Virus record (IMG/VR): IMGVR_UViG_3300011430_000004
Coordinates: 1 to 48,897 of that record
Reading direction: 5' to 3' (one strand)
DNA length: 48,897 bases
From: a virus
Shown piece by piece: positions 40,166-44,348 of the stretch; position 1 is the stretch's first letter; every line of letters starts with the position of its first letter. A program made the translations under genes and the position numbers. Below the pieces are notes generated by a model that saw only the letters and a program-made list of their open reading frames with translations, was not told the DNA's origin and made no database searches.

Positions 40166-40806
40166 GCAACTATTACGAGCACGACAGGGCGGAGAAGAAA
40201 GAACGGCATGCCGGACCCCGGCCCCCTATGCCAAAGCCCAATTACGATTATTGTCAGATGATGCACGAGTACCTTGAAGCCAGGAGGCTATCTTATCATG
40301 TCGCACGTGTTAATGGTTGGTATCCTACTACTGCTGTGGATCGTAGCCCACGTATTGTTATTCCTGGCGTTAATCCGCATGGCCTAGCTTACTATCAGGC
40401 GCGGGCAATGGACGACCATAAGATTAGGTATAAGTCCCCCGCTGCTTCAAGGGCTGACAGTATCGTGTTGGTTTATCCGGCTGAGGACGGCGCTCGTGAT
40501 AAGAGTGGGACAGGAGGGGCCGCTATATTCGAAGGCCCTATGGATGCTCTTGCCGCTGCGGGTTTGGAGTGGATCGGTATAGCCTTAATGGGTAATGAGC
40601 CCCCGGACGGTGTGTTAGCTTACACCGCTTCTATCTGTGACAGTGTGCAAGAAGTCGCGATCTTACCGGACATGGACCACCCCGAAATGGGGGGCTATGT
40701 CCTTGGCTATCTTGGGACGCGGGGAATCAAGGCGCGGGTTATCATTCCTTCGGAGAAAGACTTCGCGGACATGAGCCCCCGACAAAGAGAGGAGATATTA
40801 GGATGA
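40162..40806 (+). CDS. Toprim-domain protein (primase-like, 214 aa)
   Basis: AAIFEGPMDALAAAG ... VAILPDMDHPEMGG matches the Toprim E-G-x-x-D ... D-x-D-x-x-G layout. No zinc-finger domain seen. Confidence 0.6.
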   Translation: MSNYYEHDRAEKKERHAGPRPPMPKPNYDYCQMMHEYLEARRLSYHVARVNGWYPTTAVDRSPRIVIPGVNPHGLAYYQARAMDDHKIRYKSPAASRADSIVLVYPAEDGARDKSGTGGAAIFEGPMDALAAAGLEWIGIALMGNEPPDGVLAYTASICDSVQEVAILPDMDHPEMGGYVLGYLGTRGIKARVIIPSEKDFADMSPRQREEILG

Positions 40807-40997
40807 GACTATTAAATTGGTTGGGCTTCGTGATAATGACTAAAGCTCAATTTAAAATGTACTTGGATGAGGCATATTGGGAAGGCCACGATGACGGTTG
40901 GATCGGGGGGAAAGATGAAGGCTACGAAGAAGGCTTCCAAAACGGTCAAGAAACCCAGTCTCAAGAAAATCAGTTTGACGAAGGAACCGCTATCTAA
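40803..40997 (+). CDS. hypothetical acidic protein (64 aa)
   Basis: ATGA overlap with the Toprim gene. Its 3' part overlaps, in another frame, the likely start of the next gene. Confidence 0.45.
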   Translation: MRLLNWLGFVIMTKAQFKMYLDEAYWEGHDDGWIGGKDEGYEEGFQNGQETQSQENQFDEGTAI

Positions 40998-41397
40998 TGC
41001 AGGGTCCGAGCGTTGGGCATGTCAGGAGTGCGGGCTGTATACGGGTGAGCCTAGTCGTCCGCAGGTCCCCGAGGATTGGACTGGAAAGCTGCTGATTGTT
41101 GGAGACAATGGAAACCTTACTGGACGAGCTTTTTCACTTCTTCGTAAGCTCTGGCGGAGCGTGGGATATACGGATAGCGACGTTGCTTGCTTTAGCTCTG
41201 TGCGTTGCAGCGGACCAAAGGCCGCGAACATGAATCAGGTCCGCGCTTGCAGGCCGTTTTTGCTGACCGTTCTAGCTAAGCTTAATCCTAAATTTGTATT
41301 AGCTGCGGGCGCAACAGCTTTCCGGGCGATCAAGAATGACGGGTCTATAAACATCACAAGGAACCGGGGAAAGCAATTGAAAGTGGAGGGTCTATGA
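40915..41397 (+). CDS. UDG-like (family-4-type fold) domain, N-terminal fragment of the polymerase-associated domain
   Basis: WACQECGL (CxxC), LLIVGDNGNLTGRAF in the position of GEAPG, and SSVRCSGP...VRACRPFL (Fe-S Cys pair). It ends ...RNRGKQLKVEGL* before the final HPS-type motif. Start is uncertain (ATG 40891/40915 or TTG about 40975). Confidence 0.65.
   Translation: MKATKKASKTVKKPSLKKISLTKEPLSNAGSERWACQECGLYTGEPSRPQVPEDWTGKLLIVGDNGNLTGRAFSLLRKLWRSVGYTDSDVACFSSVRCSGPKAANMNQVRACRPFLLTVLAKLNPKFVLAAGATAFRAIKNDGSINITRNRGKQLKVEGL
41377..41384 (+). repeat. 8-bp direct repeat TTGAAAGT, left junction of the insertion in the polymerase gene
   Basis: Read directly. It encodes L-K-V at the end of the N-terminal fragment. 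Confidence 0.9.
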
Positions 41398-41600
41398 GTA
41401 ATAGGGAGACTTCGGTTACGGTTATGATTGTTCCTGCGAAGGGGGGTATTAAGGGCCGTAGTTATTTAGTTAAGATCAGGGATGAGCAATTTTTGTTCGA
41501 CAGTTGGGAAGCCCTTCATTTCGCAAGTCAACTCATTGACGCGGTATCGCATCAACATGCCGATGGGAGGTACGGTCCCCATGAAGAAGGTAGCCGATGA
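41394..41600 (+). CDS. insertion-borne micro-protein 1 (68 aa)
   Basis: SD GGAGGG upstream. ATGA overlap with the stop of the UDG-like fragment. No family recognised. Confidence 0.5.
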   Translation: MSNRETSVTVMIVPAKGGIKGRSYLVKIRDEQFLFDSWEALHFASQLIDAVSHQHADGRYGPHEEGSR

Positions 41601-41761
41601 GTAACACGGATATCATCGCGAAGCTAATCGCACAAGCAGAACTAACTGAACAGTTTCTCGTAGAGGGCCGCTGTGGATATGAAGTCGAAATTATGATGGA
41701 CAACCAGAGGGCAATCATGACGGCCATGATTCGACTACTCCGGGCTCTGGAGACGGTTTGA
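41597..41761 (+). CDS. insertion-borne micro-protein 2 (54 aa)
   Basis: ATG 41597 overlaps the stop of ORF 1 (ATGA), and TGA 41759..41761 overlaps the TTG start of the polymerase. MSNTDIIAKLIAQAELTEQFLVEGRCGYEVEIMMDNQRAIMTAMIRLLRALETV. Below the ORF-track cutoff. Confidence 0.45.
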   Translation: MSNTDIIAKLIAQAELTEQFLVEGRCGYEVEIMMDNQRAIMTAMIRLLRALETV

Positions 41762-41765
41762 AAGT
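41758..41765 (+). repeat. 8-bp direct repeat TTGAAAGT, right junction
   Basis: Read directly. It supplies the TTG start and the K-V of the polymerase ORF. Confidence 0.9.
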
Positions 41766-43761
41766 CTACGCCACTTATGACCCCGCGTCGGTACTGAAAG
41801 GGGGGTATGAATTTGAGAAGAGAATTATTGAGGATCTCGGACGATTTACAACGCGTCAATTGCGCAGTCCCGTTGCCGGTTCGCCTAGTGGAAATTCAAC
41901 AGTGTTGGGATTTGACACTGAGTATTCAGCGACGGGTGAGTTACTTACAGTCGGCTTTGCAGACGCAAATCAATCAAGAGCTATTGAGACAAGTGGAAAG
42001 TGGCAAGCAGAAGCCAAGAAAATCCTCAAGTCGGCGCAAGTAATCTGCGGGCATTCTGTGGAGGGAGACCTTGATTACCTTGTCAAAAACAAACTCTGCT
42101 TGGAAAAGTGGTTACGAGGAAAGGATGTTTACGATTCTTTTCTCCTTGCTCGAATGGTGGATGAAAACCGGGGGCGTGGTGGATACAATCTACAGTCCCT
42201 CCTCTTATCCGAGTGTAACTTTTCGGAGTGGAAGTCTGAGACAGAAGCGCTTCTTAAAAAAACTAATAACGCGGCTGATTGGACGCCGGATCAAAGGACA
42301 GAGCGTTGTAGACTCGACGCTTGGGCTACCCGAATCCTTTGTGAACGATTCGCCCCACAAATCGACAAAGAGTTGTACTCGTTCACGGCCTCTATCGCAA
42401 TGTCCCTGCACCGCGTCGGCCTTGCAGGGGCAGCAATTAACCTTCGTCTTTTTCACAAGCTCGGACGGGGCTGGAAACAAGAAGCCGAGCGACTCCGACA
42501 AAAGATAACCCGCTATGCTCATTCTAAAGGAGTGTCCGAGTTTGTCCCCACTAAGGATGACCATCTGCGGGAAATTCTCTATAAGAAGCTTCACTATCCC
42601 GTATTGTCGAAAACTGAAAAGGGCGGGCTTCCTCAAGTTAATAAAGCAACTCTCCAAAAGATCATAGCGGACTGTGAAGGCAATCATGTTTTTATCAAAT
42701 ATCTTCTTGAATTTAACAAAGTCGATAAGCTTGCATCGACTTGGTATGGTTCAGAAATGGAAGGCCGTAAGAAATCGGTCGGAGAGCTTATTCAAAACAT
42801 ACCGGGAAGTCCCAATCTTGGCTTGCTGCACTTCTGGATATACTCTTTACGTGCTCGAACTGGCAGACGGGCGTCAGGTGGCGGTGAGGAGGGCGACCCT
42901 GAAAGTCGAAATTCTCAGAACTGGCCTCCTGCTGCGCGTAAAGTTGTCGTTTCACGATGGAAGAACGGGAAAATTGCTATTTGCGACTTCACAAGACTTG
43001 AAGTGGTGCTCATGGGTTGGAGAGCCGGTGATGAAAAGCTGCTTGACTATTTTCTTAATGGGTCTGGTTATATCGGGGTGGCTAAGGAGTTTTGGGGGCA
43101 GGATGTTAAGGAAGGGACTCCCTTATATAAGGGCACTAAGAGCTTAGTGTTAGGCTTAGACTATAACATGGGGTGGTATAAGCTCGCTCTTGATTTGTGG
43201 AACAAGGCCGGACTGCGGTTATCGGAGGATTGGAATGAGCATTGCGCGGAAACGAAAAGGGTCCGTAAACGCTACCTTGCGATGTTTTCGGGTCTGCGAA
43301 GGTATATCAGAGACAGAATTACAGAAGTCACTGACACGCAACAGGTCGTTTCTCCTAGCGGAAGGATACGTCATTTGTCCCACCACGGGCCGGACAGCGA
43401 AGGGTTCTGGCATATTCGAAACGCTGCGGTCAATCAACCTATTCAAAGCTTTGCGTCGGACGTTACAGGGGGTGCGGTAATTGATTATGAAGCTGCATTA
43501 TTACGTGAGCATAATCTTAGTTATCTTGACTGGCATCGGGCTCTTTCCAATACGCCTTGGGACCCTCCTTGTTCTCCTGTTTTTAACGAGGTACACGATG
43601 AGCTTGATTTGGATCTACACCCAAAAAGCGGGAAAAGAGACTTGGAAATATTGGTAGATTGCATGGAGAACGTGCGGTCACTCAAAAAGCTTGTGCCTGG
43701 ATTTGATCTTAAGCTTAAGGTTGACGTTAAGGTTCGAAAGGATTGGTGTGGGAATGGATAA
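41758..43761 (+). CDS. polA: family A DNA polymerase with 3'-5' exonuclease domain (C-terminal piece of a split UDG-like/PolA gene)
   Basis: Exo motifs GFDTEYS, GHSVEGDLDYL and CRLDAWAT. Pol motif A is ICDFTRLEVVLMGW, motif B region is KSLVLGLDYNMG, and motif C is VFNEVHDELDLD. The N-terminal KVYATYDPASVLKGG is the tail of a UDG fold. TTG start with GGAG 5 nt upstream. Confidence 0.9.
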   Translation: MKVYATYDPASVLKGGYEFEKRIIEDLGRFTTRQLRSPVAGSPSGNSTVLGFDTEYSATGELLTVGFADANQSRAIETSGKWQAEAKKILKSAQVICGHSVEGDLDYLVKNKLCLEKWLRGKDVYDSFLLARMVDENRGRGGYNLQSLLLSECNFSEWKSETEALLKKTNNAADWTPDQRTERCRLDAWATRILCERFAPQIDKELYSFTASIAMSLHRVGLAGAAINLRLFHKLGRGWKQEAERLRQKITRYAHSKGVSEFVPTKDDHLREILYKKLHYPVLSKTEKGGLPQVNKATLQKIIADCEGNHVFIKYLLEFNKVDKLASTWYGSEMEGRKKSVGELIQNIPGSPNLGLLHFWIYSLRARTGRRASGGGEEGDPESRNSQNWPPAARKVVVSRWKNGKIAICDFTRLEVVLMGWRAGDEKLLDYFLNGSGYIGVAKEFWGQDVKEGTPLYKGTKSLVLGLDYNMGWYKLALDLWNKAGLRLSEDWNEHCAETKRVRKRYLAMFSGLRRYIRDRITEVTDTQQVVSPSGRIRHLSHHGPDSEGFWHIRNAAVNQPIQSFASDVTGGAVIDYEAALLREHNLSYLDWHRALSNTPWDPPCSPVFNEVHDELDLDLHPKSGKRDLEILVDCMENVRSLKKLVPGFDLKLKVDVKVRKDWCGNG

Positions 43762-43918
43762 TAGACTGGAAGCTTATACCCTCGCGTTGCAAGATATACA
43801 GTATATCATGAAGCAATACGAACAGTATAAGCCTGAGGCGTGGGTAACTGTAAGGAAGATTGTCGCGGGGGCCTTACACCCGCATAAGATCAAGAAGGGA
43901 GATAAGCAAGATGCCTAG
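43754..43918 (+). CDS. hypothetical protein (54 aa)
   Basis: ATG 43754 overlaps the polymerase stop region. The ORF-track start at 43691 lies inside polA. Confidence 0.5.
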   Translation: MDNRLEAYTLALQDIQYIMKQYEQYKPEAWVTVRKIVAGALHPHKIKKGDKQDA

Positions 43919-44348
43919 AGGAAGTAGTAGGCCGTCAATGTTCATCGCATTTTCGGCCAAGGTCCGGGAAGGTAAATACGTTAAGGGTCCTTCGGTCGGA
44001 CTGTGGCCCCGCGATACAGGTCCGGAGGCCGGGGGCTCACTCAAGGGTGAATACCTGGAGCAACTGGTTGAGTTTCTAAACAAGGCTTGCGACAAGGGCA
44101 GCGACGTGTCCGTGGCGCTGTTCAAGGGTAGCAAGAAATTCGGCAAACGTCAGGATGAGGAAGACGAAGAGGGCGATGATGATGATGATGAGGAAGAGGA
44201 AGAGGAAAAGCCTTCCCGCAGTCGTCGCAGTAAAAAAGAAGACGAAGACGAAGAGGACGAGGACGAAAAGCCCCGTCGTGGCAGCAAAGGGAAAGCGGCT
44301 AGTAAAGGGAAAGGCAAGAAAAAAGACGATTGGGGATTTGACGATTAG
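43911..44348 (+). CDS. ssDNA-binding-protein-like protein with acidic C-terminal tail (145 aa)
   Basis: SD AAGGGAG upstream of ATG 43911. The long D/E/K low-complexity region ending DDWGFDD resembles the acidic protein-recruiting tails of phage SSBs. Replication-module context. Confidence 0.4.
   Translation: MPRGSSRPSMFIAFSAKVREGKYVKGPSVGLWPRDTGPEAGGSLKGEYLEQLVEFLNKACDKGSDVSVALFKGSKKFGKRQDEEDEEGDDDDDEEEEEEKPSRSRRSKKEDEDEEDEDEKPRRGSKGKAASKGKGKKKDDWGFDD

Follow-up and report, generated by a model that had tools for sequence, protein, structure and literature searches.

A conserved break inside the uracil-DNA glycosylase-like domain of a phage family A DNA polymerase is probably an old gene fission whose boundary was later colonised by micro-genes

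This analysis concerns a gene for a family A DNA polymerase (PolA) with an N-terminal uracil-DNA glycosylase (UDG)-like domain, found in a viral DNA of 48,897 nucleotides (IMG/VR record IMGVR_UViG_3300011430_000004, positions 1 to 48,897; this whole stretch is called the window). In the window the polymerase is encoded in two pieces with two micro-genes between them, and all four open reading frames (ORFs) lie on the plus strand. The N-fragment gene (40915..41397) encodes 160 amino acids (aa) with the tail ...RNRGKQLKVEGL, ending ...KQLKVEGL at a TGA (41395-41397); its likely start is the ATG at 40915, with GGGGGGAAAG just upstream, and an alternative ATG lies at 40867. It is followed by micro-ORF1 (41394..41600, 68 aa) and micro-ORF2 (41597..41761, 54 aa, predicted helical), both beginning MSN, and by the C-fragment or PolA gene (41758..43761, 667 aa), which starts with TTG. 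The four ORFs are linked in this order by stop/start overlaps: the ATG of micro-ORF1 overlaps the N-fragment stop (ATGA), the ATG of micro-ORF2 overlaps the micro-ORF1 stop (ATGA), and the TTG of the C-fragment overlaps the micro-ORF2 stop (TTGA). A GGAGGG Shine-Dalgarno sequence within the N-fragment tail codons (41385..41390) now serves micro-ORF1, and a second one, GGAG (41749..41752), lies 5 nt 5' of the C-fragment TTG. The 8-bp word TTGAAAGT occurs twice on the plus strand, at 41377..41384 over the codons L-K-V of the native N-fragment tail and at 41758..41765 over the C-fragment start codon and the K-V that follow it. The N-fragment and PolA ORFs share one frame, with an offset of 381 nt from repeat to repeat and a gap of 363 nt between the pieces. 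A preliminary description of this DNA, made from its letters alone, had given the same ORF ends, micro-ORFs, TTG start, shared frame, overlaps and GGAG spacing, all of which were borne out when the sequence was read again.

Over the 4.5 kb that surround the locus, the window and an independent ENA assembly agree with 100% identity, and identical proteins are carried by five to six contigs, among them L006, an independent assembly in which the 160-aa UDG gene is called (here and below, L numbers denote loci and P numbers homologous proteins). Misassembly of the locus is therefore very unlikely. A 64-aa ORF in another frame (window 40803-40997, plus strand) shares 83 nt with the beginning of the N-fragment gene; it is left uncalled by the gene caller on the identical contig L006 and is probably spurious.

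The two pieces together make up a UDG-PolA. The Pfam UDG profile matches the N-fragment alone over profile positions 9-101 of 141 (34.5 bits), and when the start of the PolA ORF was appended the match widened to positions 9-140 of 141 (41.9 bits); the last strand and the motif-B region of the domain therefore sit at the start of the PolA ORF. NCBIfam models of family-4 UDGs match the N-fragment far under their cut-offs. The C-fragment begins KVYATYDPASVLKGG..., comprising the last UDG strand and helices, and continues into a 3'-5' exonuclease domain and a family A polymerase domain (Pfam DNA_pol_A, 5.3e-28; the exo1 match is weak). A search with the joined protein returned three groups, namely single-chain UDG-PolAs of 790-870 aa, close relatives of 664-674 aa and a group of ~466 aa. 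The joined query covers 94-100% of many of the 790-870-aa proteins with PF03167 and PF00476, and one intact single-chain homologue, P0002, is 60% identical to the window protein. The window does not encode such a single polypeptide: the first ORF stops at 41395-41397, six in-frame stops follow, and the second ORF has its own start at 41758.

The ends of both fragments are native. In a multiple alignment, the window tail ...GKQLKVEGL* matches column by column the tails ...GKNMEVPGV* and ...GIELEVTGL* of split homologues, and its counterpart in the intact proteins reads ...GKRLSIPGL-EKSPL-TYVTYHP. Furthermore, the end-to-end concatenation ...GKQLKVEGL+MKVYATYDP... aligns without gaps to Thermotoga TM0511, a family-4 UDG whose crystal structure is solved (...GNPIDWLGGKKVIPTFHP..., E=4e-11). 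Judged by these alignments, ...LKVEGL* is a native tail comparable to ...LEVPGL in relatives. An AlphaFold2 model of the concatenated single chain, computed with a 68-sequence alignment of intact fusions, reached a predicted local distance difference test score (pLDDT) of 95.4 and a predicted template modelling score of 0.89; a single-sequence AlphaFold run of the concatenation gave a pLDDT of 34 and was unusable. In the model, the junction 160|161 falls in a loop, residues 163-166 (residues 3-6 of the C-fragment) form a strand, and residues 169-191 form two helices of the UDG fold. Foldseek matched the model almost over the full length of TM0511, UdgX and the T. thermophilus UDG, with target TM-scores of 0.6-0.73, and also to the phiLo UDG-PolA cryo-electron microscopy (cryo-EM) structure 9qhs. 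By Pfam and by the model, the joined pieces thus have the UDG alpha/beta fold. Pfam, the alignment and the homologues support the proposal of the preliminary description that a UDG-PolA is cut just before the last UDG strand, at the motif-B position, giving a polymerase in two pieces.

The same break was found in relatives of the window phage. We compared, by tblastn and by reading the junctions, the loci of the 664-674-aa homologues together with 28 metagenomic and several viral loci. The residue at which the C-fragment begins is also the first residue of eight homologues of 664-674 aa, which use ATG, GTG or TTG as start codon, and all members of this group examined share the start motif M-[KR]-x-[YF]-x-[TS]-[YF]-[DH]-P. 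The break point recurs in at least 10 diverged metagenomic relatives, and, L046 apart, each locus that extends far enough upstream has a UDG-like N-fragment that ends at or next to ...PG[LV]* and is followed by a polymerase piece. The distance between the pieces varies widely. It is 0 nt in L037 and L039, where the two ORFs meet in a GTGA overlap and the GAGGTG codons of ...EVPGL act as the Shine-Dalgarno sequence of the polymerase piece; ~80-170 nt in L018, L014, L001, L012/L013 (~160 nt) and L015; 372 nt in L044, whose polymerase is 44% identical; and 783 nt in L002. In a further set of loci no insert is present and the pieces overlap in different frames (+1) (L007, 2931-3061; L009, 2940-3061; L022, 3452-3561; L023, 67-176), and L022 and L023, which share this arrangement, come from different samples. 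In these overlapping loci a programmed frameshift may be an alternative to fission.

These comparisons bear directly on how the break arose. In the model that follows from the preliminary description, a 381-bp mobile or illegitimately inserted cassette carrying the two micro-ORFs recently cut an intact UDG-PolA, leaving TTGAAAGT as an 8-bp target duplication or microhomology. The word does occur at both junctions, the pieces lie in frame 381 nt apart, and intact homologues exist. However, the break point is common to many diverged relatives, including those with a gap of zero; at least 10 relatives have it, L037 and L039 have it without any insert, and elsewhere unrelated gaps of 80-783 nt stand in the same place, which refutes the claim that the 381-bp segment made the break. 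Homologues do end the first ORF at ...PGL* and begin the polymerase at MKxYxTYDP, an arrangement that speaks against a cassette by the preliminary description's own account.

The repeat itself does not behave as a scar. It is at chance level (P=0.039), in that 3.9% of random position pairs at the same spacing share at least 8 nt within +/-25 nt; five exact direct repeats of this size (8-9 nt) lie in the surrounding 1.2 kb, and the junction words in relatives measure 5-8 nt. Both copies are made of conserved codons, copy 1 (TTG-AAA-GTG) being the ...xEV of ...EVPGL, that is, the conserved [LM]-E-V codons of the N-fragment tail, and copy 2 the conserved NTG-AAA-GYN start of the C-fragment, which in L001 reads ATGAAAGTG. 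The repeat at both junctions is thus real as described, but not its reading as a target duplication or microhomology scar. Similarly, excision of one repeat with the intervening DNA is arithmetically possible and gives ...GKQLKVYATYDP..., but it would delete five native residues, unlike plain concatenation, which is gapless against TM0511. Nor is the segment one unit. In the closest relatives, L012/L013 (polymerase ~75% identical to that of the window), the same gap holds a homologue of micro-ORF2 (43% identity over 51 aa; tblastn E=9e-10, blastp 3e-12), and tblastn against all fetched loci found no counterpart of micro-ORF1 in them. On this comparison the insert is composite, and of its two genes micro-ORF2, which the nearest relatives also have, would be the older and the orphan micro-ORF1 the newer. 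No further copy of the segment or its ORFs was found in 5.8 billion protein clusters or in viral contigs, and the segment is without terminal inverted repeats, transposase or endonuclease and has a normal composition, its guanine-plus-cytosine content being that of the neighbouring DNA. Collectively, these findings make insertion of a cassette a very improbable origin of the break.

The shared frame of the N-fragment and PolA ORFs would also be compatible with a rejoining of the pieces, by a self-splicing intron, by split-intein trans-splicing as in a "fractured gene", by ribosomal bypassing or by read-through. Phage polymerase genes are known to host introns and inteins, fractured genes exist in phage metagenomes (PMC2677866), and homologue P0068 carries an intein-type LAGLIDADG domain. 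Against this, Rfam models gave no match to the insert, either at E<=10 with permissive filters or at gathering thresholds, and the insert RNA folds less stably than shuffled sequences (z=+1.19), so the intron considered in the preliminary description found no support. Six in-frame stops lie within the 363 nt, the fragments stay in register with TM0511 up to their ends, so that nothing is left over that could form intein halves, and domain scans found no endonuclease in the micro-ORFs or in the gaps of relatives. Moreover, the zero-gap relatives still carry stop and start codons, and the insert codes in other frames, with micro-ORF2 conserved as a protein. We regard any such rejoining as extremely improbable. 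As an observation on other lineages, P0068 has 1074 aa with PF14528 (LAGLIDADG_3) and PF00476, ~250 aa over the usual fusions; P0065, P0086 and P0088 are similarly long (the four range from 1059 to 1100 aa) and have no LAGLIDADG annotation. Since P0068 has a LAGLIDADG domain, classical selfish elements may, in other lineages, have this polymerase gene among their targets as well.

We next consider the state of the UDG-like domain. Four cysteines, in CxxC (CQEC), VRC (98) and RAC (112), are present in the window and near-invariant in homologues, and from their pattern they are the predicted 4Fe-4S ligands of the family-4 type. Motif A reads LLIVGDNGN in the window in place of GE[AG]PG, and among the homologues aligned GE[GA]PG is kept in P0002, P0011 and P0013 only. 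Motif B reads TYDPAS (YDP), with Asp for His, where TM0511 has TFHPS at the aligned position, and the residue before the third cysteine is Asn in P0002 (ALVNTVRC) and Ser in the window (ACFSSVRC). Because the family-4 motifs, as the literature describes them, are degenerate, the UDG-like domain is very probably no glycosylase. The homologue alignment therefore confirmed the earlier observation that the catalytic UDG motifs are degenerate while the iron-sulfur (Fe-S) cysteines are retained. Loss of catalysis as a consequence of the split was considered and rejected, the intact fusions P0032, P0046, P0058 and L030 being equally degenerate; degenerate UDG catalytic residues have also been reported for N4-like UDG-PolAs (PMC10201439).

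Taken together, we consider it likely that the locus reflects an old gene fission shared with relatives, and not an insertion, that the polymerase reassembles from its two pieces, and that the boundary was later colonised by micro-genes. An ancestral single-chain UDG-exonuclease-polymerase would have been divided, as far as translation is concerned, within the hairpin loop that precedes the last UDG beta-strand. In the window, one transcript with four ORFs would give the 160-aa and 667-aa pieces separately by stop/start-coupled translation, and the weak TTG start of the C-fragment would probably be fed by ribosomes terminating on micro-ORF2. The pieces would then reassociate non-covalently, most probably into a two-subunit replicative polymerase, with the C-fragment strand completing the UDG fold (strand complementation), so that association would rebuild the three-domain architecture of the single-chain UDG-PolAs. 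The new gene boundary would have become a permissive landing site for small genes that differ by lineage, and the older micro-ORF2 and the newer micro-ORF1 would both have been threaded into the same coupling chain, ATGA, ATGA, TTGA. The conserved break point, the variable gaps, the native fragment ends, the absence of intron, intein or transposon features and the coding signature of the micro-ORFs are findings; physical reassembly, dependence on coupling and any function of the micro-proteins are what we infer.

Several observations weigh against this reading or parts of it. L046 (positions 1-700 of the contig of P0003) lacks an N-fragment in the 690 nt that precede its C-fragment and has a minus-strand gene there, and its polymerase piece starts, as in the window, at a TTG within a TTGA overlap; on this short contig the N-fragment may have been lost or relocated. 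L009 has lost one Fe-S cysteine. Given this absence and this loss, the N-fragment may be dispensable in some lineages. In a neighbor-joining tree of the polymerase domain, the crown group is nearly all split and the intact P0002 sits near its base, and the split P0045 falls outside the crown and groups with the intact P0011; either there was one old fission plus another, independent one, or the tree lacks the resolution to tell a single fission from several. The ratio of N-fragment to polymerase-core identity is 0.71 in the split set versus 0.96 in the intact fusions compared, and because the two sets differ in their level of divergence, the faster evolution of the N-fragment is read as constraint that may possibly be somewhat relaxed, not as decay. 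Reassembly is a prediction, and the structure model is that of one concatenated chain, not of a heterodimer. Finally, micro-ORF1 has no homologue and is a putative gene by its codon usage, its Shine-Dalgarno sequence and its coupling.

Some of these points would fit a different reading, in which the C-fragment (exonuclease plus polymerase) alone matters after the fission. The N-fragment would then be decaying, and this UDG-like remnant and the micro-ORFs would be passengers that the phage can do without and is about to lose. The lost catalytic motifs, the faster divergence of the N-fragment relative to the polymerase core and the cases of L046 and L009 are in line with it. However, in all other split loci the N-fragment is an intact ORF, with 41-75% identity among the split lineages; it keeps CxxC...C...C (the four cysteines are retained in nearly all), RACRPFLL and ...NITKxRGK..., and the C-fragment always keeps the complementary strand and helices. 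Equally degenerate intact fusions retain the domain, translational coupling is maintained, and published AlphaFold models of UDG-PolAs seat the UDG domain between the exonuclease and polymerase domains, with a role in processivity suggested (PMC10201439). We therefore hold decay of the N-fragment to be quite unlikely and retain the reading of a fission with reassembly.

To characterise the micro-ORFs, codon log-odds were trained on 28 long ORFs of the window. Micro-ORF1 scored 0.213 per codon and micro-ORF2 0.331 per codon, both inside the distribution of in-frame pieces (0.278+/-0.137); off-frame pieces scored -0.54+/-0.27, and 0 of 3,000 scored as high. The micro-ORFs are, as the preliminary description had it, linked in a translational chain, and by these values they resemble genuine coding sequence. 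A scan for promoters and terminators found none inside the insert, and their counts across the region were at shuffle level. In a word-indexed search of 5.8 billion protein clusters, both micro-ORFs gave only self matches, that is, identical copies from the same phage, and scans of viral contigs gave no match for micro-ORF2. The one viral-contig match of micro-ORF1, in L047, is spurious, since it falls in the wrong frame within an 849-aa ORF on a contig of high GC content. Five micro-ORF1 matches from exhaustive HMMER searches, to repeat proteins (TSP3, beta-propeller, ankyrin), were rejected as artefacts because short repeats sum up. Neither micro-protein matched a family in Pfam, PHROG, PADLOC or NCBIfam (weak YmgB and phrog_21231 matches fell below any threshold), so that the earlier suggestion of a toxin/antitoxin-like pair, like defence cargo or an endonuclease, gained no support from these four collections, although the micro-proteins may belong to undescribed families of such kinds.

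The gaps of relatives are filled differently from lineage to lineage. Their ORFs include a 26-aa ORF, a 29-aa helix, a 28-aa membrane peptide, a 52-aa CxxC...CxxC protein, a 95-aa protein and a set of 119, 49 and 61 aa, and they are mutually unrelated. Pfam and PHROG scans of these gap ORFs found no endonuclease and no known function; a transmembrane gap family matches a PHROG of unknown function. In the window, a repeat search found a 12/14-nt direct repeat on the plus strand at the starts of both micro-ORFs, at 41394..41407 (ATGAGTAATAGGGA) and 41597-41610 (ATGAGTAACACGGA), 203 nt apart, which brackets exactly micro-ORF1. Judged by its position, this repeat may be the footprint of the gain of micro-ORF1; because the ATGA overlap makes ATGAGT starts common among the gap ORFs of relatives, it is taken as a lead. 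Economy favours reading the micro-ORFs as accessory micro-genes of the moron-like kind; that they serve as polymerase subunits is conceivable, but nothing found supports it.

A second break, at the boundary between the exonuclease and polymerase domains (exo|pol), occurs in many relatives. In the window this boundary is contiguous, and a break there would correspond to about residue 205 of the C-fragment. It is broken in L007, L009, L018, L020, L022-L025, L033, L037 and L039, with gaps of 240-733 nt holding chained small ORFs (L007, 3600-3995; L009, 3588-3828; L018, 1214-1789; L020, 172-881; L022, 4106-4674; L023, 721-1454; L024, 258-928; L033, 522-1031; L037, 801-1306; L039, 4124-4708). Two protein families recur in these gaps. 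The first, of ~68 aa with the motif CWMDEWALGYFCALRD...EQWxFLCSAFQPE, has 50-78% identity and is conserved like the exonuclease domain itself (L007, 3605-3814; L022, 4292-4498; L023, 1031-1285; L020, 289-618; L009, 3569-3820; L024, 393-605; L033, 613-879). Pfam and PHROG gave no match for this family, whose members are candidates for association with the polymerase. The second is an acidic, helical family of 45-57 aa (MSxxISVEID...AIVRALEEDDG/A) found in the exo|pol gap of most of the listed loci (L018, 1514-1660; L037, 1071-1220; L039, 4539-4706; L024, 254-412; L023, 717-893; L020, 198-356). In L046 a member (558-695) stands directly 5' of the polymerase piece whose first element is the last UDG strand, and because this copy sits at the UDG-site break, the family precedes both kinds of polymerase piece. 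Micro-ORF2 was considered as a member of the acidic family and rejected, with an hhalign probability of ~1% and no hit of the family's hidden Markov model in the window.

The breaks might also be more than tolerated scars and act as nurseries for new replisome parts. The proteins encoded between the pieces (micro-ORF2, the CWMDEWALGYFCALRD family and the ...ALEEDDG family) would then belong to a multi-piece polymerase, either as its dedicated subunits or as factors in its assembly, and each would be translated along with the fragment that it binds, in a fixed order. We put this forward as a tentative idea and think it unlikely.

Several known systems resemble the locus in part. In the S-SBP1 group, a T7-like PolA has undergone fission of the +1-frameshift type into exonuclease and polymerase genes, with pieces predicted to reassemble (Czernecki et al. 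2023, PMC10201439), which makes it a bioinformatic precedent in family A. In the window locus, too, the two genes lie side by side and are collinear with an intact homologue, and the break comes with a stop codon and a start codon that are new; L007, L009 and L022/L023 show the +1 overlapping-ORF signature at the UDG site, and many relatives are also split at the exo|pol boundary. Unlike in S-SBP1, the window break lies within the UDG-like domain before its last strand and not between domains, the PolA belongs to a different, uncultured lineage, and the gap is filled with small genes, none of which is described for S-SBP1 in that paper. Single-chain UDG-PolAs fall into an N4-like group (cluster #17) with an inactive UDG, and SPO1-like and SP15-like groups with an active one, cryo-EM structures being available for YerA41 and phiLo. 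The window pieces are homologous to these fusions across the UDG, 3'-5' exonuclease and PolA domains and resemble the N4-like enzymes in that their UDG catalytic residues are not conserved; they differ in not being one polypeptide, in being far in sequence from the polymerases of cultured phages and in keeping the Fe-S cysteines.

Genes in pieces are familiar from phages, such as T4 gp39/gp60 with mobA, Aeh1 nrdA with mobE, and split gp43 in T4-like phages. Phage genes broken by split inteins or homing endonucleases have been described as fractured genes (Dassa et al. 2009, PMC2677866). The window shares with them a phage DNA-metabolism gene in two parts with foreign ORFs between the halves, but it has no endonuclease or intein halves, its ORFs are tiny and lineage-specific, and the break also exists with an empty gap. 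In PhiKZ, the B-family pieces DNAP-N and DNAP-C form a stable 1:1 complex that recruits a further subunit (Basu et al. 2026 preprint, PMC13648687). There, too, a phage replicase consists of two polypeptides; the polymerase family and the split site are different, and assembly is experimental for PhiKZ, whereas for the window it is inferred.

UDG-PolA fusions, inactive UDG domains, exo|pol fission of PolA, and genes in pieces with endonucleases or split inteins (PMC2677866) are thus already known. In the literature searched, we found no report of a conserved break inside the UDG-like domain, of a UDG-site break co-occurring with a second recurrent break in one polymerase family, or of micro-gene families colonising both gaps. 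Fission of family A polymerases is a recent report, hitherto at the exonuclease/polymerase boundary only. Here the break lies inside a folded domain, so one beta-strand and helices would be supplied in trans, and it is maintained across a clade of uncultured soil and groundwater phages. The locus would show, in nature, how strand complementation can hold the parts of a replicase together, and it also argues that the catalytically dead Fe-S UDG-like domain is still needed. A new boundary inside an essential, highly expressed operon would also act as a hot spot for the gain and exchange of tiny genes, which stay in translational register, and the origin and fixation of micro-proteins could conveniently be studied here. 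In addition, annotation pipelines would call such polymerases truncated and their N-fragments stand-alone "UDGs", both of which are misleading.

The lineage is known from metagenomes only. Searched as nucleotides against a phage database, the 4 kb around the locus matched nothing, and the best match among cultured phages (tblastn, 50,697 phage records) was PMBT14 at 22% identity, with no N4-type phage among the 25 matches listed. Relatives were absent from a scan of 185,579 species genomes, which therefore offered no clue to the host. Shortly 3' of the polymerase in two relatives, small genes match the Pfam family Acb2_Tad1_hairpin, an anti-CBASS/anti-Thoeris sponge fold (L001, 8659-8892; L002, 8923-9135). 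The window (1-48897) resembles a near-complete phage genome, independent assemblies measuring 48,480-49,097 bp. Structural, packaging and lysis-type genes occupy the minus strand (~3.2-31.2 kb), and a replication module occupies the plus strand (31.4-48.9 kb). Just 3' of the polymerase, a 162-aa ORF (window 43860-44348, plus strand) encodes a long acidic run (DEEDEEGDDDDDEEEEEE...) followed by lysine-rich stretches, and the antisense and alternative-frame ORFs over 43860-44348 are due to this low-complexity sequence.

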